DNA from: Escherichia coli
GTDB lineage: Bacteria > Pseudomonadota > Gammaproteobacteria > Enterobacterales > Enterobacteriaceae
DNA: 64,000 bases
NCBI RefSeq assembly: GCF_048403405.1
Contig: NZ_CP183129.1
Direction: 5' to 3' (one strand)
In this document: piece by piece, positions 169-63,773 of the stretch
Numbering within the stretch: position 1 is the stretch's first letter
Layout: each line of letters opens with the position of its first letter
Notes under the pieces: model-generated
What the model saw: the letters and a program-made list of their open reading frames with translations, nothing else
What the model was told of the DNA's origin: nothing
The model's database searches: none
Position numbers and translations under genes: made by a program

Positions 169-245
<77 letters not shown>

Positions 246-279
246 TCACCGTACTGCTTTTACTTCATCAAATTTTGAT

Positions 280-356
<77 letters not shown>

Positions 357-389
357 TCACCGTACTGCTTTACTTCATCAAATTTTAAT

Positions 390-466
<77 letters not shown>

Positions 467-4788: not shown

Positions 4789-4994
4789 AAAAAAAAGCAC
4801 CGCAATTAGGCGGTGCTACATTAATCACTATGGACAGACAGGGTAAATGTACAGGAAGTGAAAAAAGGTAGCTTTGCTACCATGGTCTGAATCGCAGACC
4901 AATTGCAAACACAACAACACAACATCACAACCGTAAGCCAAAAGTTCACCAGAACACGCATTCCGATAAAACTTTTCGTTCCGGCTCAGGAAGT
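4789..4994 (-). ncRNA. gcvB: GcvB small regulatory RNA (Hfq-dependent regulator of amino-acid and peptide transporter mRNAs)
   Basis: Minus strand reads ACTTCCTGAGCCGGAACGAAAAGTTTTATCGG...GTTGTGATGTTGTGTTGTTGTGTTTG...AGCACCGCCTAATTGCGGTGCTTTTTTTT, matching E. coli gcvB including the GU-rich R1 region and terminator; divergent from gcvA. Confidence 0.9.
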
Positions 4995-6058: not shown

Positions 6059-6454
6059 ATGACCAGCCGTTTTATGCTGATTTTTGCCGCCATTAGCGGC
6101 TTCATTTTTGTGGCTCTGGGCGCTTTTGGCGCGCATGTGTTAAGTAAAACCATGGGGGCCGTTGAGATGGGCTGGATCCAGACCGGTCTCGAATACCAGG
6201 CGTTCCACACGCTGGCGATCTTAGGTCTGGCGGTGGCAATGCAGCGTCGCATCAGTATCTGGTTTTACTGGAGTAGCGTTTTCCTCGCGTTAGGCACGGT
6301 GCTGTTCAGCGGCAGCCTTTATTGCCTGGCGCTGTCCCATCTGCGTTTGTGGGCATTTGTCACACCGGTTGGCGGCGTGAGCTTCCTCGCGGGCTGGGCG
6401 TTAATGTTAGTTGGTGCTATCCGTTTAAAGCGCAAGGGCGTAAGTCATGAATAA
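6059..6454 (+). CDS. ygdD: Inner membrane protein YgdD (DUF423)
   Basis: 131 aa, four hydrophobic segments; position and sequence match YgdD. Confidence 0.85.
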
Positions 6455-23213: not shown

Positions 23214-23579
23214 GTCGACAGGGAGTCAGACAACGAAGTGAACATCAGGATGATGACACTTCTGAAGGACACACCAGGATGGTGTTTCAGGGAAAGGCTT
23301 CTGGATGAAGCGAAGAGGATGACGCAGGACGCGTTAAAGGACACCTCCAGGATGGAGAATGAGAACCGGTCAGGATGATTCGGTGGGTCAGGAAGGCCAG
23401 GGACACTTCAGGATGAAGTATCACATCGGGGTGGTGTGAGCAGGAAGCAATAGTTCAGGATGAACGATTGGCCGCAAGGCCAGAGGAAAAGTTGTCAAGG
23501 ATGAGCAGGGAGCAACAAAAGTAGCTGGAATGCTGCGAAACGAACCGGGAGCACTGTGAATACAGTGCTCCCTTTTTTT
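23214..23579 (+). ncRNA. csrB: CsrB sRNA (CsrA-sequestering RNA)
   Basis: Begins GTCGACAGGGAGTCAGACAACGAAG; at least 8 CAGGATG/AGGATG motifs plus further GGA motifs; ends with hairpin gggagcactgtgaatacagtgctccc plus 7-nt T run; located between syd and yqcC as in E. coli. Confidence 0.92.
23547..23579 (+). terminator. csrB intrinsic terminator
   Basis: Perfect hairpin gggagcactgt / acagtgctccc followed by TTTTTTT. Confidence 0.85.
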
Positions 23580-23624
23580 ATTCCTGCTATCCTTCGCGGC
23601 AGTTTTTCTTATTGAGGTTGCTTT

Positions 23625-36337: not shown

Positions 36338-36586
36338 ATGATCCACAGTAGCGTAAAGCGTTGGGGAAATTCACCGGCGGTGCGGATCCCGGCTACGTTA
36401 ATGCAGGCGCTCAATCTGAATATTGATGATGAAGTGAAGATTGACCTGGTGGATGGCAAATTAATTATTGAGCCAGTGCGTAAAGAGCCCGTATTTACGC
36501 TTGCTGAACTGGTCAACGACATCACGCCGGAAAACCTCCACGAGAATATCGACTGGGGAGAGCCGAAAGATAAGGAAGTCTGGTAA
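36338..36586 (+). CDS. mazE: Antitoxin MazE
   Basis: 82 aa [27 protein letters not shown]... exact MazE-like sequence (AbrB/SpoVT fold). Confidence 0.96.
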
Positions 36587-36921
36587 TGGTAAGCCGATAC
36601 GTACCCGATATGGGCGATCTGATTTGGGTTGATTTTGACCCGACAAAAGGTAGCGAGCAAGCTGGACATCGTCCGGCTGTTGTCCTGAGTCCGTTCATGT
36701 ACAACAACAAAACAGGTATGTGTCTGTGTGTTCCTTGTACAACGCAATCAAAAGGATATCCGTTCGAAGTTGTTTTATCCGGTCAGGAACGTGATGGCGT
36801 AGCGTTAGCTGATCAGGTAAAAAGTATCGCCTGGCGGGCAAGAGGAGCAACGAAGAAAGGAACAGTTGCCCCAGAGGAATTACAACTCATTAAAGCCAAA
36901 ATTAACGTACTGATTGGGTAG
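36586..36921 (+). CDS. mazF: mRNA interferase toxin MazF (ACA-specific endoribonuclease)
   Basis: 111 aa [36 protein letters not shown]...; start overlaps mazE stop. Confidence 0.96.
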   Translation: MVSRYVPDMGDLIWVDFDPTKGSEQAGHRPAVVLSPFMYNNKTGMCLCVPCTTQSKGYPFEVVLSGQERDGVALADQVKSIAWRARGATKKGTVAPEELQLIKAKINVLIG

Positions 36922-43270: not shown

Positions 43271-44031
43271 GTGTTCCCCGCGCCAGCGGGGATAAACCGC
43301 GTTCAGCGTTGCTGGGCTGCGCAATGGACTGGTGTTCCCCGCGCCAGCGGGGATAAACCGCGGAGTTTTCACGGAACGCACAGCGAATTATGGTGTTCCC
43401 CGCGCCAGCGGGGATAAACCGCCGATAAATTTTCGCCCCGTTTCCAGCGCCGCGTGTTCCCCGCGCCAGCGGGGATAAACCGTTCAAACTGTAGGGATCG
43501 GCAATGGTGCCGAAGTGTTCCCCGCGCCAGCGGGGATAAACCGGGGCATTAGAATAACTTAAATGGAAAAAGAAAGTGTTCCCCGCGCCAGCGGGGATAA
43601 ACCGTCAGCCAGCACATAATTTTTATAGTCAGTATTGTGTTCCCCGCGCCAGCGGGGATAAACCGAAAGAGGTTATCGAGCGATATAACGCGTCCATGTG
43701 TTCCCCGCGCCAGCGGGGATAAACCGGTGCCTGGCGTCCATCTATTCACATGCCGCGCGTGTTCCCCGCGCCAGCGGGGATAAACCGTATTGGCGACGAT
43801 GGCATACCAGGACTACTCCGTGTTCCCCGCGCCAGCGGGGATAAACCGGCTCAGCGTCTGCTCTGGTGCCTCGCCCGTGAGTGTTCCCCGCGCCAGCGGG
43901 GATAAACCGGACCGTTACGGGCGCGTTCTTGGACTTGTTGAGTGTTCCCCACATCAGCGGGGATAAACCGGACACAGAGCGCCGCTATAGCGCCTATGCC
44001 AAGAGTTTCCCGCACCAGCGGGAATAAACCA
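43271..44031 (+). CRISPR. Type I-E CRISPR array: 13 repeats of 29 bp, 12 spacers of 32 bp (the queE-ygcE array of E. coli)
   Basis: Repeat GTGTTCCCCGCGCCAGCGGGGATAAACCG at 43271, 43332, 43393, 43454, 43515, 43576, 43637, 43698, 43759, 43820, 43881, then degenerate copies at 43942 (gtgttccccacatcagcggggataaaccg) and 44003 (gagtttcccgcaccagcgggaataaacca); exact 61-bp period. Confidence 0.97.
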
Positions 44032-44500
44032 CCATATAACCCGTTATCTCTTTCTCAAGTTTTTATATTAGCTGTACTTGTAATAAGCAACATATCCACG
44101 TAACACCTCATGTTCAAAATAGTTCTCCATGTCAGAGAAGTTCACAATTATCGATACAAAAAATTAAATTTAATCAAAGTGTTATTTGTATGATTCTTAA
44201 ATCGTTAAGAAATTTTAATCTATTATTTTTTTAATATTGAATTAATGCCTGTTAATTTTTTCTTTAGAATAACAGTGTGTTTTTTAAGCTTGTTATTCAT
44301 TGATTAAGTAATAAATCTGGAAGTTTGTCTTTGTTTTGAGGCTAATGAGTGGTTTTACATAACCGTCTCTATAGGCTGTTGATGAATAGTTCTTATGAAT
44401 AAAGATATCCAGTTCATACTTTAAATGAAAATTGATAAAGTACGGTTTGCGTTGTCTTTTATTCTAAAGACATCGAGTGTAGTTAATATTCCTTGTAAAA

Positions 44501-44623
44501 ACAGGGATAAACCGAACTAGTTAAAGTTTTTATTATGTTCCCTGCATCAGCGGGGATAAACCGGACTTGTTATCATTTTTTAAGTTGTCGAACTTATGTT
44601 CCCCACGTCAGCGGGGATAACCA
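44501..44623 (+). CRISPR. Decayed satellite CRISPR array (truncated repeat, two degenerate repeats, one 32-bp spacer)
   Basis: Partial repeat cagggataaaccg (ends 44514), degenerate repeats atgttccctgcatcagcggggataaaccg (44535-44563) and atgttccccacgtcagcggggataacc (44596-44623) separated by a 32-bp spacer; preceded by about 470 bp of AT-rich leader-like sequence. Confidence 0.8.
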
Positions 44624-44669
44624 TTCAGGTATGTTCAGGCCGGGCAGTTTCCCGCCCGGTCTTCCTCAC

Positions 44670-47629: not shown

Positions 47630-47645
47630 TGTGATTACGATCACA
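47630..47645. promoter_or_regulatory. Consensus CRP binding site upstream of ygcW
   Basis: TGTGAttacgaTCACA, perfect match to both CRP half-sites, centred about 130 bp upstream of the ygcW start; candidate -10 (tatgat / gataaa, 47662-47670) places it near a class II position. Confidence 0.65.
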
Positions 47646-47698
47646 TTAGCGATTATGCCCTTATGATAAAAATTATCTCCAGTTACCAGAGATAATGA

Positions 47699-47743
47699 GA
47701 AAGGTAACTTCCCTCTCGCGGGGGAAGTTACCTTTCTTTTTTT
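47699..47743 (+). terminator. Strong intrinsic terminator inside the ygcW 5' leader (candidate antitermination target)
   Basis: Perfect 15-bp stem gaaaggtaacttccc / gggaagttacctttc (47699-47713 and 47722-47736), 8-nt loop, then TTTTTTT (47737-47743), ending 24 nt before the ygcW ATG. Confidence 0.75.
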
Positions 47744-47767
47744 GCCTTACGGAAATTGGAGCTAACT

Positions 47768-50077: not shown

Positions 50078-50170
50078 TGTGTCAGGCAGCGTTCCGCGAT
50101 GACGGAGCGTTGCCTTTTCGGCTTCTCAGGCGAGAAGCCGTTCTTATTACCGGACAATGAAGGGGTAAAG

Positions 50171-51508
50171 ATGAACACTTCACCGGTGCGAATGGATGAT
50201 TTACCGCTTAACCGTTTTCACTGTCGAATTGCTGCGCTCACTTTCGGCGCACACCTGACCGACGGTTATGTTCTCGGCGTCATTGGTTACGCCATTATTC
50301 AGCTTACGCCCGCCATGCAACTGACGCCGTTAATGGCGGGAATGATTGGCGGCTCGGCGCTCCTTGGTTTGTTTCTTGGCAGCCTGGTTCTTGGATGGAT
50401 CTCCGACCATATTGGTCGGCAAAAAATCTTCACCTTCAGCTTTTTGCTGATTACGCTCGCTTCGTTTTTACAATATTTTGCCACCACGCCAGAGCATCTT
50501 ATAGGACTACGCATTTTGATTGGCATTGGTCTGGGAGGCGATTACTCAGTAGGTCACACTTTGCTGGCTGAATTTTCTCCGCGCCGCCATCGCGGTGTTT
50601 TGCTGGGCGCATTCAGTGTGGTGTGGACCGTAGGCTATGTGCTGGCAAGTATTGCCGGACATCACTTTATTACCGAAAGCCCGGAGGCCTGGCGCTGGCT
50701 GCTGGCATCAGCGGCGTTACCAGCCTTGCTGATTACGCTGCTACGTTGGGGAACGCCAGAATCGCCACGCTGGCTACTGCGCCAGGGGCGTTTTGCAGAA
50801 GCTCACGCTATCGTGCATCGCTACTTTGGTCCCCATGTTTTACTGGGCGATGAAGTGGCAACGGCGACCCATAAACACATCAAAACCTTGTTCTCTTCGC
50901 GCTACTGGCGGCGCACGGCGTTTAACAGCGTCTTCTTTGTCTGCCTCGTAATCCCATGGTTTGTGATTTACACCTGGCTGCCAACTATCGCGCAAACTAT
51001 TGGTCTGGAAGATGCGCTGACAGCTAGCCTGATGCTTAATGCGTTGTTAATTGTGGGCGCGCTGCTGGGATTAGTTCTGACGCACCTGCTGGCACATCGC
51101 AAATTTTTGCTGGGAAGTTTTTTGCTGCTGGCGGCAACGCTGGTAGTGATGGCCTGTTTGCCTTCCGGTAGTTCATTAACGCTGCTGCTTTTTGTTCTCT
51201 TCAGCACCACCATTTCGGCAGTCAGTAATCTGGTGGGCATTTTGCCTGCGGAAAGTTTTCCTACTGACATTCGCTCGCTGGGCGTCGGTTTTGCCACCGC
51301 CATGAGTCGGTTGGGCGCGGCAGTAAGTACGGGCCTGCTGCCGTGGGTGCTGGCGCAGTGGGGAATGCAAGTCACCTTATTGCTCCTGGCGGCAGTGTTG
51401 TTGGTTGGTTTTGTCGTGACCTGGCTATGGGCACCAGAAACCAAAGCACTCCCGCTGGTGGCGGCGGGAAATGTAGGAGGTGCGAATGAACATTCTGTTA
51501 GCGTTTAA
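50171..51508 (+). CDS. ygcS: MFS transporter (sugar-porter-like, uncharacterised)
   Basis: Start at ATG 50171 (MNTSPVRMDDLPL..., RBS aggggt); 12 TM MFS protein; the track start is 24 codons upstream. Confidence 0.85.
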   Translation: MNTSPVRMDDLPLNRFHCRIAALTFGAHLTDGYVLGVIGYAIIQLTPAMQLTPLMAGMIGGSALLGLFLGSLVLGWISDHIGRQKIFTFSFLLITLASFLQYFATTPEHLIGLRILIGIGLGGDYSVGHTLLAEFSPRRHRGVLLGAFSVVWTVGYVLASIAGHHFITESPEAWRWLLASAALPALLITLLRWGTPESPRWLLRQGRFAEAHAIVHRYFGPHVLLGDEVATATHKHIKTLFSSRYWRRTAFNSVFFVCLVIPWFVIYTWLPTIAQTIGLEDALTASLMLNALLIVGALLGLVLTHLLAHRKFLLGSFLLLAATLVVMACLPSGSSLTLLLFVLFSTTISAVSNLVGILPAESFPTDIRSLGVGFATAMSRLGAAVSTGLLPWVLAQWGMQVTLLLLAAVLLVGFVVTWLWAPETKALPLVAAGNVGGANEHSVSV

Positions 51509-52265
51509 AGCCGAACCGGATGCCGGAATGCTGGCGGAAAAAGAGTGGCAGGCGGCGGCTCAGGGTAATAGCGGACCGGATGTTTCGCTTCTGCTAAGTT
51601 TACTCGGTGCTGATGAACAGGCTGCCGCCGCGCTGCTGTTGGCGCAGAGAAAAAACGGTACGTCGATGTCTTTAACCGCGTTGAGCATGGGGAATGAACG
51701 GGCGTTGCACTGGCTGCGCTATCTCATGGCTCTTGGGTTTGAGGAAGCTGTATTGCTGGAGACGGCGGCAGATCTGCGCTTTGCGCCGGAATTTGTCGCT
51801 CGCCATATTGCCGAATGGCAGCGTCAGAATCCGCTGGATCTGATAATTACCGGCTGCCAAAGCAGCGAAGGGCAGAATGGGCAAACGCCATTTTTGCTGG
51901 CGGAAATGCTGGGCTGGCCCTGCTTCACCCAGGTGGAGCGTTTCACTCTCGACGCGCCGTTTATCACCCTCGAACAGCGTACTGAACATGGGCTGCGCTG
52001 TTGCCGGGTTCGCTTGCCTGCGGTGATTGCCGTGCGTCAGTGTGGTGAAGTGGCCTTGCCAGTACCGGGAATGCGCCAGCGAATGGCTGCGGGGAAAGCA
52101 GCAATTATCCGTAAAACTGTTGCTGCCGAATCGCCAGCGATGCAGTGTCGGCAACTGGCAAGAGCAGAGCAACGACGCGGAGCGACGCTGATTGATGGGC
52201 AAACGGTAGCAGAAAAAGCGCAAAAGCTATGGCAGGACTATTTACGCCAAAGGATGCAGCCATGA
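51486..52265 (+). CDS. ygcR: Electron-transfer flavoprotein beta-subunit paralog (FixA-like)
   Basis: MNILLAFKAEPDAGMLAEKEW...; ETF-beta-like; start ATG 51486 with RBS aggagg; overlaps ygcS 3' end by 23 nt. Confidence 0.82.
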   Translation: MNILLAFKAEPDAGMLAEKEWQAAAQGNSGPDVSLLLSLLGADEQAAAALLLAQRKNGTSMSLTALSMGNERALHWLRYLMALGFEEAVLLETAADLRFAPEFVARHIAEWQRQNPLDLIITGCQSSEGQNGQTPFLLAEMLGWPCFTQVERFTLDAPFITLEQRTEHGLRCCRVRLPAVIAVRQCGEVALPVPGMRQRMAAGKAAIIRKTVAAESPAMQCRQLARAEQRRGATLIDGQTVAEKAQKLWQDYLRQRMQP

Positions 52266-53122
52266 ATATCGCAATTGTGACAATAAATCAGGAGAATGCC
52301 GCAATAGCGAGCTGGCTGGCAGAACAGGATTTCAGCGGTTGTACCCTGGCACACTGGCAGATTGAACCTCAGCCCGCTGTGGCGGAACAGGTACTGGATG
52401 CGCTGGTGGAACAGTGGCAGCGAACGCCTGCGGACGTTGTTATCTTTCCGCCGGGAACGTTTGGCGATGAACTGTCGACCCGGCTGGCCTGGCGTTTACA
52501 TGGTGCAAGCATCTGCCAGGTGACTTCGTTAGATATTCCAACCGTAAGCGTGCGCAAATCCCACTGGGGAAATGCGCTAACGGCGACGCTGCAAACAGAA
52601 AAACGCCTGCTATGCCTTTCCCTGGCGCGTCAGGCGGGAGCAGCGAAAAACGCCACGTTGCCCTCTGGTATGCAGCAACTGAACATTGTCCCAGGTGCGC
52701 TTCCCGACTGGCTGGTTAGCATAGAGAATCTGAAAAATGTTAGCCGCGACCCATTAGCTGAAGCCAGACGGGTGCTGGTGGTGGGGCAGGGCGGAGAGGC
52801 AGATAACCAGGAAATCGCTATGCTGGCAGAAAAGCTGGGAGCCGAAGTGGGCTACAGTCGGGCGCGAGTGATGAACGGTGGCGTTGATGCTGAAAAAGTG
52901 ATTGGTATTTCCGGACATCTGCTGGCACCTGAGGTGTGCATTGTTGTTGGCGCTTCCGGCGCAGCAGCGTTAATGGCGGGCGTACGCAATAGCAAGTTTG
53001 TGGTGGCGATTAATCATGACGCCAGCGCGGCGGTATTTTCACAGGCAGATGTTGGCGTGGTTGATGACTGGAAAGCGGTGCTGGAGGCACTGGTGACAAA
53101 CATTCACGCAGATTGCCAATAA
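52262..53122 (+). CDS. ygcQ: Electron-transfer flavoprotein alpha-subunit paralog (FixB-like)
   Basis: MNIAIVTINQENAAIASWLAEQ...; ETF-alpha-like; ATGA overlap with the ygcR stop. Confidence 0.82.
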   Translation: MNIAIVTINQENAAIASWLAEQDFSGCTLAHWQIEPQPAVAEQVLDALVEQWQRTPADVVIFPPGTFGDELSTRLAWRLHGASICQVTSLDIPTVSVRKSHWGNALTATLQTEKRLLCLSLARQAGAAKNATLPSGMQQLNIVPGALPDWLVSIENLKNVSRDPLAEARRVLVVGQGGEADNQEIAMLAEKLGAEVGYSRARVMNGGVDAEKVIGISGHLLAPEVCIVVGASGAAALMAGVRNSKFVVAINHDASAAVFSQADVGVVDDWKAVLEALVTNIHADCQ

Positions 53123-53268: not shown

Positions 53269-53844
53269 TCAAAGCAATTTTTTCGCTAGCGTCCAGACCC
53301 CGGTATTCGTGGTGGAAAGCGCCACAACACCCGCGTTAATCGCATTACGCGCATCTTCTTCATCGCACACCAGCCCGCCGGCAATCAGCGGTTGGCGGAT
53401 TTTCTCCGTCACCCAGCCCAGCACTTTGGGCATACAGCCTGGCAGGATCTCAATACAATCCGGATTCGATTGCGCAACTTGCTTATCAATGTTGTGAAAC
53501 GAAATCGAATCAACAATAAACAGGCGATGAATACAGAAAAAACCTTCCGCTCTTGCTGCTTTCAGCATCGATGCTTTCGTGCTGATAATGCCGTCCGCCT
53601 CAGTCACCAGTTTCAAAAACTGAATCACCACTTCTTTATTTGACGCGCCTTCCAGCAAATCAACATGAATAAAAGCATATTTTCCGGCGTTCTTAATCTT
53701 TTTAACGATATTACTGATGGTGCAGATATTGCCGTACAACACGGAAATAAACTGGCATTCAGAGTCGATTGCCAGTTGCAGGCTGGCATTATCTTTAACG
53801 GCAGCAATCACCGGATTCTGGCGGAGCAGGTGTAAGAGGGGCAT
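53269..53844 (-). CDS. ygcP: GlpP-like glycerol-3-phosphate-responsive transcription antiterminator family protein
   Basis: 191 aa MPLLHLLRQNPVIAAVKDNASLQLAIDSECQFISVLYGNICT...; resembles the B. subtilis GlpP antiterminator family. Confidence 0.85.
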   Translation of the reverse strand: MPLLHLLRQNPVIAAVKDNASLQLAIDSECQFISVLYGNICTISNIVKKIKNAGKYAFIHVDLLEGASNKEVVIQFLKLVTEADGIISTKASMLKAARAEGFFCIHRLFIVDSISFHNIDKQVAQSNPDCIEILPGCMPKVLGWVTEKIRQPLIAGGLVCDEEDARNAINAGVVALSTTNTGVWTLAKKLL

Positions 53845-53860
53845 AAATTATCCTTATTAT

Positions 53861-54121
53861 TTATCCAAAACGGTAGGTGATGCCGAATCCGGAAGGCGGA
53901 TAGCGCCACTGTTGTAGTGTTGATTCGTCGCACAGCAAACGGCAGGTGCCACACTCCAGGCAGCCGCGATAATCAACGCGTAAGTCACCTTCCGGTGTGA
54001 GCGAAAAAAGACCAGCCGGACAAGCGTTAATCAACCGTTGTACCGTCTGACGCTCAACGGAGTCAGCCGGAACAATGTGCGGCGCATCGGCAACGCGCCA
54101 GAGATTACGGGCTACAGACAT
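53861..54121 (-). CDS. ygcO: Ferredoxin-like protein (FixX-like)
   Basis: 86 aa from the ATG at 54121 (MSVARNLWRV...); Cys cluster CxxCxxC (CLECGTCRLLC); track ORF extends upstream. Confidence 0.8.
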   Translation of the reverse strand: MSVARNLWRVADAPHIVPADSVERQTVQRLINACPAGLFSLTPEGDLRVDYRGCLECGTCRLLCDESTLQQWRYPPSGFGITYRFG

Positions 54122-60517: not shown

Positions 60518-60725
60518 GCGAGCAGCATTCCGGCATTTAAAGGTGAACATCGCAGGGAGAATTAACAGGTATAGAATGGAGTTGGGTGCTTGAGGCTGTC
60601 TGGCGTTAAGCATTCGCGAGGTTCCAGATGGACAAAAGCCCCAGGCGATATTTCTATCAACCTGAGGCCAGCGTTCGAACCTAAGCAATTCGAATGTTAG
60701 TCTCTTCTTTGCAGGGAGGCAAGAC

Positions 60726-60878
60726 ATGCTGACAAAATATGCCCTTGTGGCAATCATCGTACTGTGTTGTACAGTACTGGGATTCACGCTGATGGTAGGC
60801 GACTCGTTGTGTGAGTTGAGTATCAGAGAACGTGGTATGGAGTTTAAGGCAGTTCTCGCTTACGAATCGAAGAAGTAG
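60726..60878 (+). CDS. Hok-family type I toxin (50-aa small membrane protein), part of a hok/sok-like locus
   Basis: [53 protein letters not shown]: N-terminal TM helix plus conserved Hok motif DSLCE...R...[11 protein letters not shown]; below the 60-aa cutoff of the ORF track; followed by hairpin cgcgggg gtaaaa ccccgcg (60885-60904) and a T run; K-12 carries a hok/sok-type locus (sokX) at this position. Confidence 0.8.
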
Positions 60879-61115
60879 CCACCACGCGGGGGTAAAACCC
60901 CGCGTATTGGATTGTGATGGTTTGGTCTCCTGCACCCTTTTTTAATTTATATTGTTTATGTAAATATTATGCCTATGTTTATTATTCATATATATTACGG
61001 ATGAAAATTATTTGATTATTCATAATGTAAATATTTTATTGAACGATATATATCACAGATAATTTTTAATATATGCGTAAATATCCTTTAAGTTTTACTG
61101 AAGGATAAAAACATT

Positions 61116-63773
61116 GTGACTTTCTTTGATTTCTGGGGAAAAACCCGACGTGGCGAGAAAGAGGGTGGTGACGACTATCACCTTCTTTGCTGGCATTCGC
61201 TGGATGTAGCCGCGATGGGCTATTTAATGGTTAAAAGCAATTGCTTCGGGCTGGCTGACTATTTTCGTCAACTAGGTTTCGCTGATACGGAGCAGGCAGC
61301 ACAATTTTTCGCCTGGTTGCTGTGCTGGCACGATACTGGAAAATTTGCCCGCTCTTTTCAGCAACTTTACCTGCACCCGCAACTCAAGGTTCCGGAAAGC
61401 TCTAGAAAAAATTACGAAAAAATCTCTCATTCAACGCTGGGTTACTGGTTGTGGCACCATTATTTAAGTGAATGCGAAGAATTGCTTCCTTCATCTTCAC
61501 TCTCTCCGCGCAAACTTAAACGGGTGATAGAGATGTGGATGCCCATGACTACCGGGCATCATGGTCGCCCGCCTGACCGTATGGATGAACTGGATAATTT
61601 TCTGCCTGAAGACAAAGCCGCCGCGCGAGATTTTCTCCTTGTAATCAAGGCACTGTTTCCTCTCATCGAGATCCCCGCATTCTGGGATGATGACGATGGC
61701 GTTGAACTTTTAAAACAACTTTCCTGGTATATCTCTGCAACTGTCGTACTTGCAGACTGGACGGGATCGTCAACGCGATTTTTTCCACGCGTCGCGCAGG
61801 CAATGGATATTGAAGATTACTGGCAGAAGGCTTTAGTTCAGGCTCAAAACGCATTAACCGTCTTTCCTCCAAAAGCACAAACCGCGCCTTTCACCGGAAT
61901 TAATACGCTGTTTCCTTTTATTGAGCACCCGACACCGTTACAGCAAAAGGTGCTGGATCTGGATATCAGCCAGCCTGGGCCACAGTTATTTATTCTGGAG
62001 GATGTGACTGGCGCAGGTAAAACAGAAGCGGCGCTTATCCTGGCCCACAGGTTGATGGCTGCGGGGAAAGCACAGGGTTTGTTTTTTGGCCTGCCAACAA
62101 TGGCAACGGCCAATGCCATGTACGATCGGCTGGTAAAAACCTGGCTTGCTTTCTATTCGCCAGAATCCCGCCCCAGCCTGGTGCTGGCACACAGTGCCCG
62201 CACATTAATGGACCGCTTTAATGAATCACTCTGGTCCGGTGATTTAGTCGGGTCAGAAGAACCGGATGAACAAGCGTTCAGTCAGGGATGTGCGGCCTGG
62301 TTTGCCGACAGTAACAAGAAGGCGTTGCTGGCTGAAATTGGCGTCGGCACGCTGGATCAGGCGATGATGGCGGTGATGCCGTTTAAACATAATAATCTGC
62401 GGCTTCTGGGACTGAGTAACAAAATCCTGCTGGCTGATGAGATCCATGCCTGTGACGCTTACATGTCGTGCATTCTTGAAGGATTGATTGAGCGGCAGGC
62501 GCGTGGCGGAAACAGCGTTATTTTGCTTTCTGCCACGTTATCTCAACAGCAGCGCGACAAACTCGTTGCTGCCTTTGCGCGTGGTGCAGAGGGTCAGCAA
62601 GAAGCTCCGTTCCTGGAAAAGGATGATTACCCCTGGCTGACGCACGTTACGAAATCGGATGTGCATTCACACCGGGTAGCAACGCGCAAAGACGTTGAGC
62701 GTAGCGTGAGCGTGGGTTGGCTTCATAGCGAACAAGAGTGTATTGCGCGTATCGAATCGGCGGTAAGTCAGGGGAAATGCATCGCCTGGATCCGGAATTC
62801 TGTCGATGATGCTATTAAAGTTCATCGTCAGTTGCTTGCCCGCGGCGTCATTCCTGCTTCCAGCCTTTCTCTGTTTCATAGCCGCTTTGCTTTTAGCGAT
62901 CGCCAGCGAATTGAAACGGAAACGCTGGCACGCTTCGGTAAAGAAGATAGCTCACAGCGTGCCGGAAAAGTCCTCATTTGTACTCAGGTCTTAGAGTCGA
63001 GCGTTGATTGCGATATGGACGAAATGATTTCCGACCTGGCCCCTGTTGATTTGCTGATCCAGCGAGCGGGGCGATTACAGCGGCATATCCGCGATATTAA
63101 TGGTCAGTTAAAGCGTGACGGAAAAGACGAGCGTTCTCCTCCTGAATTGCTGATTCTGGCCCCCGTCTGGGACGACGCTCCAGGTGACGAATGGTTCGGC
63201 AGTGCCATGCGTAACAGTGCATATGTCTATCCCGATCATGGACGAATCTGGCTGACGCAGCGTGTACTGCGTGAGCAAGGCGCGATTCAAATGCCACACG
63301 CAGCCCGCCTTCTTATTGAATCAGTCTACGGTGAGGACGTGGTAATGCCGGAAGGATTTGCCCGCAGCGAGCAGGAACAAGTGGGCAAATATTACTGCGA
63401 TCGCGCAATGGCTAAAAAGTTTGTGCTGAACTTCAGGCCCGGCTATGCCGCCAATATCAACGATTACCTCCCGGAAAAGCTGTCGACACGTCTGGCTGAG
63501 GAGTCTGTTTCCCTGTGGCTGGCTACCTGTATTGACGGTGTGGTGAAGCCTTATGCCACCGGTGCTCACGCATGGGAAATGAGCGTTGTCAGAGTGCGTC
63601 GAAGCTGGTGGAAAAAACATTGCGATGAGTTTTCTTTACTGGAAGGGGAAGCGTTCAGGCAGTGGTGCGTTGAACAGCGGCAAGATCCGGAGATGGCAAA
63701 TGTGATTTTAGTTACCGATGACGAAAGTTGCGGGTATTCGGCTAGGGAGGGATTGATTGGTAAGGTTGATTGA
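61116..63773 (+). CDS. cas3: Cas3 (type I-E CRISPR-associated HD nuclease / SF2 helicase), non-K-12 allele
   Basis: 885 aa; HD motifs (HSLDVAA, WHDTGKF), helicase motif I TGAGKTEA, motif II DEIH, motif III SATL, motif VI QRAGRLQRH; GTG start; sits directly downstream of cysH as in E. coli; N-terminal sequence differs from the K-12 Cas3 I recall (MEPFKYICHYWGKS...). Confidence 0.9.
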   Translation: MTFFDFWGKTRRGEKEGGDDYHLLCWHSLDVAAMGYLMVKSNCFGLADYFRQLGFADTEQAAQFFAWLLCWHDTGKFARSFQQLYLHPQLKVPESSRKNYEKISHSTLGYWLWHHYLSECEELLPSSSLSPRKLKRVIEMWMPMTTGHHGRPPDRMDELDNFLPEDKAAARDFLLVIKALFPLIEIPAFWDDDDGVELLKQLSWYISATVVLADWTGSSTRFFPRVAQAMDIEDYWQKALVQAQNALTVFPPKAQTAPFTGINTLFPFIEHPTPLQQKVLDLDISQPGPQLFILEDVTGAGKTEAALILAHRLMAAGKAQGLFFGLPTMATANAMYDRLVKTWLAFYSPESRPSLVLAHSARTLMDRFNESLWSGDLVGSEEPDEQAFSQGCAAWFADSNKKALLAEIGVGTLDQAMMAVMPFKHNNLRLLGLSNKILLADEIHACDAYMSCILEGLIERQARGGNSVILLSATLSQQQRDKLVAAFARGAEGQQEAPFLEKDDYPWLTHVTKSDVHSHRVATRKDVERSVSVGWLHSEQECIARIESAVSQGKCIAWIRNSVDDAIKVHRQLLARGVIPASSLSLFHSRFAFSDRQRIETETLARFGKEDSSQRAGKVLICTQVLESSVDCDMDEMISDLAPVDLLIQRAGRLQRHIRDINGQLKRDGKDERSPPELLILAPVWDDAPGDEWFGSAMRNSAYVYPDHGRIWLTQRVLREQGAIQMPHAARLLIESVYGEDVVMPEGFARSEQEQVGKYYCDRAMAKKFVLNFRPGYAANINDYLPEKLSTRLAEESVSLWLATCIDGVVKPYATGAHAWEMSVVRVRRSWWKKHCDEFSLLEGEAFRQWCVEQRQDPEMANVILVTDDESCGYSAREGLIGKVD

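Follow-up and report, generated by a model that had tools for sequence, protein, structure and literature searches.

That neighbouring genes of an Escherichia coli operon can overlap briefly, and that such overlaps are linked to translational coupling, is textbook knowledge. The ygc cluster raises the question of how far such overlaps can be read in this way, since ygcS, which encodes a sugar-type transporter, runs into ygcR, and ygcR in turn runs into ygcQ, the latter two encoding a pair of ETF-like proteins. A first-pass annotation had described the overlaps in this and other operons of the region as dense translational coupling, and had taken the ygcS-ygcR-ygcQ overlaps as support for co-translation of the transporter with the ETF-like pair. 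We analyzed the window, a 64,000-nt stretch of the E. coli chromosome (contig NZ_CP183129.1) that runs from mltA-csdAE via the ygc cluster to cysJIH-cas3. Our preferred reading, to which we assign a probability of about 85%, is that all eight overlaps considered here are ordinary operon overlaps at background frequency, that the short ones fit reinitiation, and that the ygcS/ygcR overlap is a by-product, with independent initiation of ygcR.

Eight overlaps at the frequency of the genome

The eight junctions are the following.

csdA/csdE, 3148, minus strand: TAATG, 1 nt overlap
ygdD/rlmM, 6447-6454, plus strand: ATGAATAA, 8 nt overlap
yqcC/truC, 23954, plus strand: TAATG, 1 nt overlap
mazE/mazF, 36586, plus strand: TAATG, 1 nt overlap
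ygcS/ygcR, 51486-51508, plus strand: 23 nt overlap, in the phase -8/-11/.../-23
ygcR/ygcQ, 52262-52265, plus strand: ATGA, 4 nt overlap (-4 spacing)
ygcN/ygcO, 54112-54121, minus strand: 10 nt overlap between a FixC/ETF-QO-like gene and a FixX-like ferredoxin gene that follows it, with the ygcO Shine-Dalgarno sequence AGGAG
cysJ/cysI, 57941, plus strand: TAATG, 1 nt in common (shared A)

All of them are present where the first-pass annotation had placed them. When rebuilt from the window sequence, 8/8 junctions have the coordinates and lengths originally given, and the coding sequences on both sides are in frame, without internal stop, and begin and end at the assigned codons. RefSeq assigns the same coordinates in the nearest strain and, for cysJ/cysI, ygcN/ygcO, ygcR/ygcQ and ygcS/ygcR, they agree with the K-12 MG1655 annotation in the stretch compared. 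The ygc and cysJ/cysI distances are therefore already known from MG1655, and a published K-12 table contains five of the eight (ygcS/R at -23, ygcR/Q at -4, ygcN/O at -10, cysJ/I and mazE/F at -1), with cysJ/cysI marked as a complex.

The description of these overlaps as dense does not hold. Beyond the eight, no overlapping pair was found among the 37 co-directional neighbour pairs formed by the 52 annotated genes of the window, which gives a rate of 8/37 or 21.6%. The background was taken from published counts over the whole K-12 genome, whose denominators are explicit, in preference to sampling annotated 50-kb regions. According to these counts (from a 2023 paper), 707 of 2,987 unidirectional pairs in K-12 (23.7%) are spaced between -8 and +6 nt, predicting 8.8 overlapping pairs in the window (binomial P(X>=8) = 0.68). 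The overlaps cannot be called dense, because their frequency equals the K-12 genome background.

One could still argue that overlaps are unusually common in the window, or in its ygc cluster, as a consequence of special selection for compact co-expression. Within its 8 kb, the cluster does account for three of the eight, among them the two long ones (-10 and -23). Its three overlaps are, however, drawn from only six or seven co-directional pairs (ygcE/yqcE, ygcW/U, ygcU/S, ygcS/R, ygcR/Q, ygcP/O and ygcO/N were counted), a sample too small to tell from chance. Moreover, the ratio of short to long overlaps in the window, 6:2, fits the ratio of roughly 4:1 reported for prokaryotes (Huber et al., 2023; PMC10666635), and an overlap of 4 nt is likewise seen at the FixC/FixX-type junction of the fix and ydi clusters, which encode paralogous ETFs. 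Together with the background rate for the window as a whole, this makes special enrichment very improbable.

Genes and start codons of ygcS, ygcR and ygcQ

The genes and initiation signals of the three-gene stretch are as follows.

ygcS, 50171-51508, plus strand: MFS sugar-type transporter; probable true coding sequence of 445 aa (MNTSPVRMDD...), with Pfam Sugar_tr and MFS_1
ygcR Shine-Dalgarno sequence, 51475-51480, plus strand: AGGAGG, within the last ygcS codons, 5 nt before the ATG
ygcR, 51486-52265, plus strand: ETF beta/FixA-like subunit of 259 aa, with Pfam PF01012
ygcQ Shine-Dalgarno sequence, 52250-52254, plus strand: AAGGA, inside the ygcR 3' end, 7 nt before the ATG; duplex energy -5.4 kcal/mol
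ygcQ, 52262-53122, plus strand: ETF alpha/FixB-like subunit of 286 aa, with PF00766 and PF01012

YgcR matches PF01012 (E=6e-17), and its best PDB matches are the ETF beta chains 1efp_B and 1efv_B. YgcQ matches the full PF00766 profile (E=1e-17) as well as PF01012, and its best PDB matches are the ETF alpha chains 1efv_A and 1efp_A. The domain composition fits a predicted ETF-like heterodimer of YgcR (beta) and YgcQ (alpha). The published K-12 table lists the pair as not forming a complex ("CMPLX not"), it being uncharacterised. The literature mentions of ygcR and ygcQ are mostly unrelated to these questions, except for papers on MazF "death proteins" and a SELEX table.

Overlaps of this kind can be artefacts of annotation, with the true starts lying downstream (for ygcR, for example, at Met15, position 51528), a possibility that the first-pass annotation had itself named as one that would remove the overlaps. 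Start calls do vary between pipelines: the ygcS start is placed at 50099 (469 aa) by RefSeq PGAP in the nearest strain and at 50171 (445 aa) in the K-12 annotation, and ygcQ has an alternative upstream in-frame ATG at 52229. For ygcS, the Raoultella and Citrobacter reading frames open at the ATG equivalent to 50171, with GAAGGGG as Shine-Dalgarno sequence before it, suggesting that the PGAP start is probably over-extended. For the downstream genes of the junctions, K-12 and PGAP agree wherever they can be compared. The ygcR start at 51486 is preceded by the properly spaced AGGAGG, while Met15 is without a comparable Shine-Dalgarno sequence. Upstream of 51486 there is an in-frame stop at a distance of 9 nt, and the GTG at 51480 overlaps the Shine-Dalgarno sequence. 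The YgcR N-terminus (MNILLAFK.EPD) is kept across genera, with residues 1-14 conserved and substitutions falling on third positions in the annotated frame. As for ygcQ, the ATGA and an upstream AGGA are retained in all relatives; the ATG at 52229 arises out of YgcR Leu-Trp codons, has no Shine-Dalgarno sequence, and would lengthen the overlap with ygcR rather than abolish it. The annotated starts are thus upheld, and we consider it extremely unlikely that the overlaps are artefacts.

Overlap geometry and RNA structure

Two classes of junction can be distinguished. Six have stop/start overlaps of 1, 4 or up to 8 nt (cysJ/I, yqcC/truC, mazE/F, csdA/E, ygcR/Q and ygdD/rlmM), while ygcN/O (-10) and ygcS/R (-23) fall outside this class. 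The latter two also lie outside the range of -8 to +10 for which coupling is predicted by Huber 2019 (PMC6728339). At the short junctions (-1, -4, -8), a ribosome that has just terminated upstream could re-initiate on the downstream start (termination-reinitiation), and four of them join known or predicted complex partners, namely CysJ/CysI, MazE/MazF, CsdA/CsdE and YgcR/YgcQ. What ribosomes do at these junctions we infer from their geometry, since searches of the literature for experiments on them (reporter assays, ribosome profiling) found none.

Shine-Dalgarno sequences of downstream genes lie inside the upstream coding sequence for ygcR (-11.5 kcal/mol), ygcO (AGGAG, -6.9 kcal/mol), mazF (AAGGA, -6.2 kcal/mol) and ygcQ (AAGGA); those of truC and cysI are weaker, at about -3.5 kcal/mol. 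The folds of the three ygc junctions have z-scores of -1.37, +0.81 and -0.28 against shuffled sequences, and the mean unpaired probability is 0.45 at overlapped starts versus 0.47 at other starts of the window. The junctions thus carry no structural signal for coupling by unfolding that differs from shuffled controls, which neither supports nor refutes coupling.

The ygcR/ygcQ junction

Among the ygcS/ygcR/ygcQ and the other overlaps, the ATGA of ygcR-ygcQ is alone in having the geometry from which tight coupling normally results. In a reporter assay, strict coupling was seen for four of five native E. coli pairs whose stop and start codons overlap (PMC6728339), and spacings between -8 and +10 are 4.5-fold enriched for heteromeric complexes (2023 paper). 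We compared the locus with seven relatives, comprising five other Escherichia lineages, Raoultella terrigena and Citrobacter sedlakii; protein identity is about 70% in Raoultella and Citrobacter. The ATGA is present in 7/7 of them, a Shine-Dalgarno sequence of the form RAGGA/GAGG is conserved, and 4,163 of the 5,426 complete E. coli genomes carry the 50-nt context of the junction at 100% identity. Termination-reinitiation coupling of ygcR and ygcQ is therefore likely on the grounds of geometry, and the ATGA together with the AAGGA would lead to coupled, roughly equimolar synthesis of YgcR and YgcQ. A weak sigma-factor SELEX peak has been recorded inside ygcR (PMC5493296), which leaves room for some independent transcription of ygcQ.

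The order of a beta gene followed by an alpha gene, with a FixC/FixX-type pair nearby, is shared with the E. coli ETF paralogues fixA/fixB and ydiQ/ydiR and with the FixA-FixB class in general (COG2086@COG2025). The spacing differs, however, being +14 nt for fixA/fixB and +19 nt for ydiQ/ydiR, instead of an overlap of 4 nt; for the gene-pair class, the value tabulated over 1,695 species is +11 nt (2023 paper). Conversely, the overlap is 4 nt for fixC/fixX and for ydiS/ydiT, as compared to 10 nt for ygcN/ygcO. The latter overlap is the same in K-12 and appears to be kept in the relatives too, as judged from tblastn coordinates, which give 10 nt in L008 and L009.

The ygcS/ygcR junction

The longer overlap is of a different kind. 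The ygcS stop codon (TAA, 51506-51508) sits within ygcR codons Phe7-Lys8 (TTT AAA), and the AGGAGG of ygcR lies 26-31 nt upstream of it. The duplex energy of this AGGAGG (-11.5 kcal/mol) is the second strongest of the 52 genes in the window, and GGAGG or GGAGA is found in 7/7 relatives. The distance of -23 is in phase with the "phase 1" long overlaps (-8, -11, -14, ...) of Huber et al. (2023; PMC10666635), which are modelled as by-products of stop-codon loss and are typically uncoupled. As in these, the stop occurs by chance in conserved codons of the downstream gene, and a point mutation cannot shorten the overlap to -4 or -1. We suggest that the ygcS/ygcR overlap, too, is a retained by-product, in which the ygcS frame would simply run on to the next stop, inside ygcR codons 7-8. 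The non-overlapping ancestral state was not observed, as 8/8 genomes examined carry the 23-nt overlap. The strong AGGAGG with its 5-nt spacer fits independent initiation, by which ygcR would mainly be translated; ribosomes translating ygcS would add at most modest help by melting local structure.

The alternative is that the 23-nt overlap has been selected as a means of coupling, in which ribosomes terminating on ygcS back up by about 20 nt onto the AGGAGG, or in which translation of ygcS unmasks this site. Several observations lend it some plausibility. The -23 overlap, like the -4 overlap of ygcR/ygcQ, was measured in 7/7 species-level relatives, so that its length is invariant in three genera, and 4,325 of the 5,426 complete E. 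coli genomes match the ygcS/ygcR junction sequence at 100% identity. Within the overlap, synonymous sites are conserved: codon identity for ygcR codons 2-8 is 12/14, versus 127/293 (43%) in the rest of ygcR (Fisher p=0.002). This excess shows that the region of the overlap is under selection, and it might point to a role in addition to dual coding. Yet dual coding by itself would also keep the overlap conserved, YgcR residues 1-8 being invariant. In the minimum-energy fold, four of the six Shine-Dalgarno bases and the ygcR AUG pair with upstream ygcS, which would fit coupling by unfolding, but the predicted fold is not exceptional: its stability does not exceed that of shuffled sequence (z = -1.37), and the initiation region is unpaired about as often as other starts of the window. 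In E. coli gene pairs, coupling depends in part on the Shine-Dalgarno sequence. Bidirectional scanning by ribosomes has been discussed in the literature, and a strong Shine-Dalgarno sequence could recapture ribosomes that terminate. Against this, in a series of reporters coupling fell as the overlap grew, and was absent at -25 nt (reviewed in PMC12548453).

On balance, we regard a selected coupling device as unlikely. The same low degree of belief attaches to the idea that the overlap sets the product ratio, with ETF beta and alpha made only on mRNAs that actively make the transporter. Our analysis does not support tight translational coupling of ygcS to ygcR via the 23-nt overlap, and favors a by-product with independent initiation of ygcR. 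What remains of the proposed co-translation is the ATGA geometry of ygcR/ygcQ and co-transcription: neighbours that overlap at stop and start share a transcript, and it is certain that the transporter gene is co-transcribed with the ETF pair. The term co-translation blurs this with translational coupling. The translational ratio of transporter to ETF pair is probably not fixed.

Other features of the ygc region

YgcP matches PF04309, the GlpP-type antiterminator family, over its entire length (1-173/173, E=1e-62), and two conserved terminator-like hairpins lie near its gene, which also adjoins a perfect CRP-type palindrome (47630-47645). One hairpin of 19 bp, followed by a T-run (47697-47748), belongs to the ygcW 5' leader, where it lies after a promoter-like site and before the ATG. 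The seven relatives retain it, and in Citrobacter one of its pairs has changed in a compensatory manner. The arrangement resembles the GlpP-controlled glp operons of Bacillus subtilis, with a PF04309 gene in the cluster and a promoter-like site followed by a strong intrinsic-terminator hairpin upstream of ygcW. Unlike B. subtilis glp, the ygc cluster is not a glycerol regulon. YgcP and the ygcW leader terminator are a candidate antitermination system of the GlpP type. Literature searches found nothing connecting ygcP with antitermination, and nothing on function or regulation that treats three or more of ygcS, ygcU, ygcW, ygcN, ygcP and ygcE together. An Rfam scan of the whole window returned only CsrB, GcvB, sok and three tRNAs, without matches in the ygc region. 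The window also contains a CRISPR array, which was missed by Tandem Repeats Finder and recovered by a repeat search.

Implications

In themselves, the overlaps matter little, as they are normal operon features and largely present in the reference annotation. The 23-nt junction should not be taken as evidence that the transporter is coupled to the ETF pair. YgcR and YgcQ, on the other hand, qualify as a further pair with an ATGA junction that probably forms a complex, contrary to their entry in the published table. The probable correction of the ygcS start, the hairpins and the CRP-type palindrome may help to activate the cryptic ygc cluster and to find its substrate.

Overlapping genes in the window

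The gene map of the window is the annotation of the nearest strain, 4621, transferred onto the window sequence. It comprises 52 genes. Starting from mltA it covers csdAE, the operons fuc and gud, relA-mazEFG, eno, a CRISPR array, the ygc cluster and cysJIH, and ends with cas3. The stretch 51486-52265 is exactly the ygcR coding sequence, and the 3.5 kb around it are 100% identical to strain 4621 and matched in 5,104 of 5,426 complete E. coli genomes. The RNA genes are those to be expected in this part of the E. coli chromosome.

RNA genes in the window (Rfam)
172-466, minus strand: three tRNA genes, annotated tRNA-Met
4789-4994, minus strand: GcvB
23223-23582, plus strand: CsrB
60584-60741, plus strand: sok, adjoining a hok-family gene (60726-60878)

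The CRISPR array is type I-E-like, with 13 repeats (GTGTTCCCCGCGCCAGCGGGGATAAACCG) at a 61-nt period (43271-44033), and is shorter by one repeat-spacer unit (61 nt) than that of the otherwise near-identical strain 4621; degenerate repeat copies lie about 500 nt beyond it (44486-44628). According to the nearest strain's annotation cas3 (61073-63773) is frameshifted, and its longest ORF in the window is 61116-63773 (885 aa, GTG start).

The first-pass annotation had listed eight gene overlaps and called them dense. Each junction was rebuilt from the raw window sequence, and reading frame, internal stops, start and end were checked. The genes at all eight junctions are in frame, lack internal stops and both start and end as listed, which confirms every overlap in position and length.

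Overlapping gene pairs, rebuilt from the sequence
3148, minus strand: csdA/csdE, TAATG, 1 nt in common
6447-6454: ygdD/rlmM, 8 nt
23954: yqcC/truC, TAATG, 1 nt in common
36586: mazE/mazF, TAATG, 1 nt in common
51486-51508: ygcS/ygcR, 23 nt
52262-52265: ygcR/ygcQ, ATGA, 4 nt
54112-54121, minus strand: ygcN/ygcO, 10 nt
57941: cysJ/cysI, TAATG, 1 nt in common

No others occur among the window's 37 co-directional neighbour pairs. In a K-12 census of 2,987 unidirectional pairs, 707 (24%) are spaced at -8 to +6 nt and 820 at -8 to +10 nt, negative values being overlaps (PMC10666635). In the window each class contains 8 of the 37 pairs (21.6%), where 8.8 and 10.2 would be expected (P(X>=8) = 0.68 and 0.84, respectively). 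As this count is close to the K-12 expectation, the description "dense" is not supported. Two of the overlaps are long and six short; in prokaryotes overall the -4, -1 and -8 classes are about four-fold commoner than long overlaps (PMC10666635). Nor are the overlaps new. The MG1655 RefSeq annotation is identical to the window at the junctions compared (ygcS/ygcR 23, ygcR/ygcQ 4, ygcN/ygcO 10 and cysJ/cysI 1 nt), and five are listed singly in the supplement of PMC10666635 (ygcS/ygcR -23, ygcR/ygcQ -4, ygcN/ygcO -10, cysJ/cysI -1, mazE/mazF -1).

Start codons and conservation

Use of alternative downstream starts, which would remove the overlaps, had been named as the refuting observation; on inspection, the annotated starts of ygcR and ygcQ stand. 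The ygcR Shine-Dalgarno sequence, AGGAGG (51475-51480), lies 5 nt before ATG 51486, and its predicted duplex energy (-11.5 kcal/mol) ranks second among the 52 genes. An in-frame stop lies 9 nt 5' of this ATG, and the sole further upstream candidate, GTG 51480, falls inside the Shine-Dalgarno sequence. Initiation at Met15, which would abolish the overlap, is not credible in view of the AGGAGG spacing, of residues 1-14 (MNILLAFKAEPDAG), near-invariant in the Raoultella and Citrobacter orthologues (about 70% identical overall), and of nucleotide changes that, past the overlap, mostly affect third codon positions in the ygcR frame. For ygcQ, the ATGA and the upstream AGGA are kept in all seven relatives. 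A longer ygcQ ORF from ATG 52229 was rejected: it lacks a Shine-Dalgarno sequence, its NTG derives from YgcR Leu-Trp codons, and it would extend the overlap, not abolish it.

The YgcR protein is evidently made, since it has been observed on E. coli 2D gels after MazF induction (PMC2646832). According to the same 2009 paper its synthesis continues after MazF induction, and under DNA damage ygcR is a "death gene" (PMC2646832). An ACA, the MazF site, is present at ygcR codons 2-3 (ATGAACATT), with no evident link to the overlaps; mazEF itself (36338-36921) lies 15 kb from ygcR in the same window.

When one genome per species was scanned, the ygc cluster was present in E. albertii, E. whittamii, three further Escherichia lineages, Raoultella terrigena and Citrobacter sedlakii. 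All seven share the gene order ygcW-U-S-R-Q / P-O-N-queD, the 23-nt ygcS/ygcR overlap and the ATGA junction of ygcR/ygcQ; judged by tblastn coordinates, the ygcN/ygcO overlap is likewise 10 nt. The 50 nt spanning ygcS/ygcR recur with 100% identity in 4,325 of the 5,426 complete E. coli genomes; for the 50 nt spanning ygcR/ygcQ the number is 4,163, with K-12 derivatives and O157:H7 among them. Of 14 conserved residues in the 23-nt overlap, 12 are encoded by the same codon in Raoultella and Citrobacter, compared with 127 of 293 in the rest of ygcR (Fisher p = 0.002). Third positions of ygcR are first positions of ygcS here, and such conservation is therefore expected from dual purifying selection or from constraint on the initiation region. 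The comparison shows that both genes genuinely use the overlap as coding sequence; the codon conservation is no demonstration of coupling.

Possible translational coupling in ygcSRQ

YgcS is an MFS sugar-type transporter. YgcR has an electron transfer flavoprotein (ETF) domain and YgcQ an ETF alpha FAD-binding domain, with best matches to ETF beta chains of solved heterodimers and to ETF alpha chains, respectively. YgcN has an ETF-QO ubiquinone-binding domain, and YgcO is a small ferredoxin-like protein. The cluster thus carries a FixABCX-like electron-transfer set, beside YgcU (FAD-linked oxidase), YgcW (short-chain dehydrogenase), two transporters and a sugar kinase. Our literature search found no paper assigning the cluster a substrate, and no experiments on these junctions.

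ETFs are obligate alpha/beta dimers. A YgcR/YgcQ heterodimer is predicted by homology, contrary to a published K-12 table that scores the pair "not complex" (PMC10666635 supplement). Subunits of heteromeric complexes are 4.5-fold enriched at spacings of -8 to +10 nt (PMC10666635), and reporter assays on five native E. coli pairs with overlaps showed strict coupling in four (PMC6728339). In the model that we favor, ribosomes would terminate on ygcR and reinitiate on ygcQ at the ATGA junction; from its geometry, we put the probability of coupling here at about 0.8. In this the pair is atypical, as genes for ETF beta and alpha subunits usually have a gap between them: +14 nt in fixA/fixB, +19 nt in ydiQ/ydiR, and a tabulated +11 nt for the FixA-FixB class across 1,695 species (PMC10666635), in place of the 4-nt overlap.

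The first-pass annotation had extended co-translation to the transporter, a reading that is supported in part. For the ETF pair coupling is plausible; as evidence that the transporter is co-translated with it, the 23-nt overlap is weak. In a systematic series coupling weakened as overlaps lengthened, reaching zero at -25 nt (PMC12548453). Overlaps in the -8/-11/.../-23 phase have been read as left behind when the upstream gene lost its stop codon; shortening them to -4 or -1 is not possible, and they typically lack coupling (PMC10666635). More probably, ygcR would be initiated independently at its own strong Shine-Dalgarno sequence, and the geometry makes substantial coupling at ygcS/ygcR unlikely. 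In the minimum-energy fold of this junction the Shine-Dalgarno sequence and the AUG base-pair in part with ygcS, with a stability not above shuffled controls (z = -1.37); the folds of the other two ygc junctions are unremarkable. Predicted RNA folding thus gives no decisive signal on coupling.

Co-transcription of ygcS, ygcR and ygcQ is certain, because overlapping genes leave no space for a terminator and a promoter. A minor caveat is a weak (4.0) genomic SELEX peak of minor-sigma RNA polymerase inside ygcR (K-12 2894072, old numbering; PMC5493296); if real, some ygcQ transcription would be possible without ygcS and ygcR.

Upstream regions of ygcS and ygcW

The RefSeq annotation (PGAP) of strain 4621 starts ygcS at ATG 50099 (469 aa), behind a weak Shine-Dalgarno sequence (-2.8 kcal/mol). 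The 445-aa K-12 protein corresponds to ATG 50171 (MNTSPVRMDD), behind GAAGGGG, and the Raoultella and Citrobacter ORFs start at the equivalent ATG with GAAGGGG conserved before it. The 24-codon extension (50099-50170) is probably an annotation artefact and 50171 the true start, making the ygcU-ygcS spacer 93 nt instead of 21 nt. The 72-nt "extension" holds a terminator-like hairpin (50119-50140), CGGCTTCTC-AGGC-GAGAAGCCG, followed by TTCTTATT. In Escherichia a second stem-loop, GGCAGCGTTCCG...CGGAGCGTTGCC then TTTT, lies upstream, both being conserved within 50087-50150; at this position a single hairpin is present in Citrobacter (12 bp, then T7), and the Raoultella hairpin has 10 bp and precedes T5. 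Given these conserved hairpins, the spacer is probably non-coding and structured.

In the ygcW 5' leader a perfect hairpin of 19 bp and the T-run after it occupy 47697-47748 (plus strand), downstream of a promoter-like site (47640-47667) and ahead of the ygcW ATG (47768). All seven relatives keep the hairpin; in Citrobacter one C-G pair is replaced by G-C, a compensatory change. Just upstream, in the divergent yqcE-ygcW promoter region, lies the sole perfect TGTGA-N6-TCACA (CRP-consensus-type) palindrome in the 64 kb (TGTGATTACGATCACA, 47630-47645; 0.07 expected), which is conserved in the relatives. An Rfam scan of the window returned no family at the ygcW leader or the ygcU-ygcS hairpins, and the literature search no paper on YgcP or on antitermination in the cluster. 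YgcP, which the cluster itself encodes (53269-53844, minus strand), is a full-length GlpP-family antiterminator (PF04309), and the ygcW leader has the promoter/leader-terminator layout of GlpP-controlled operons in B. subtilis.

The spacer hairpins may be an internal attenuator, a terminator or an mRNA-processing site that divides ygcWU from ygcSRQ. By analogy, the arrangement suggests that both ygcWU and ygcSRQ would be under putative YgcP-dependent antitermination and CRP control.
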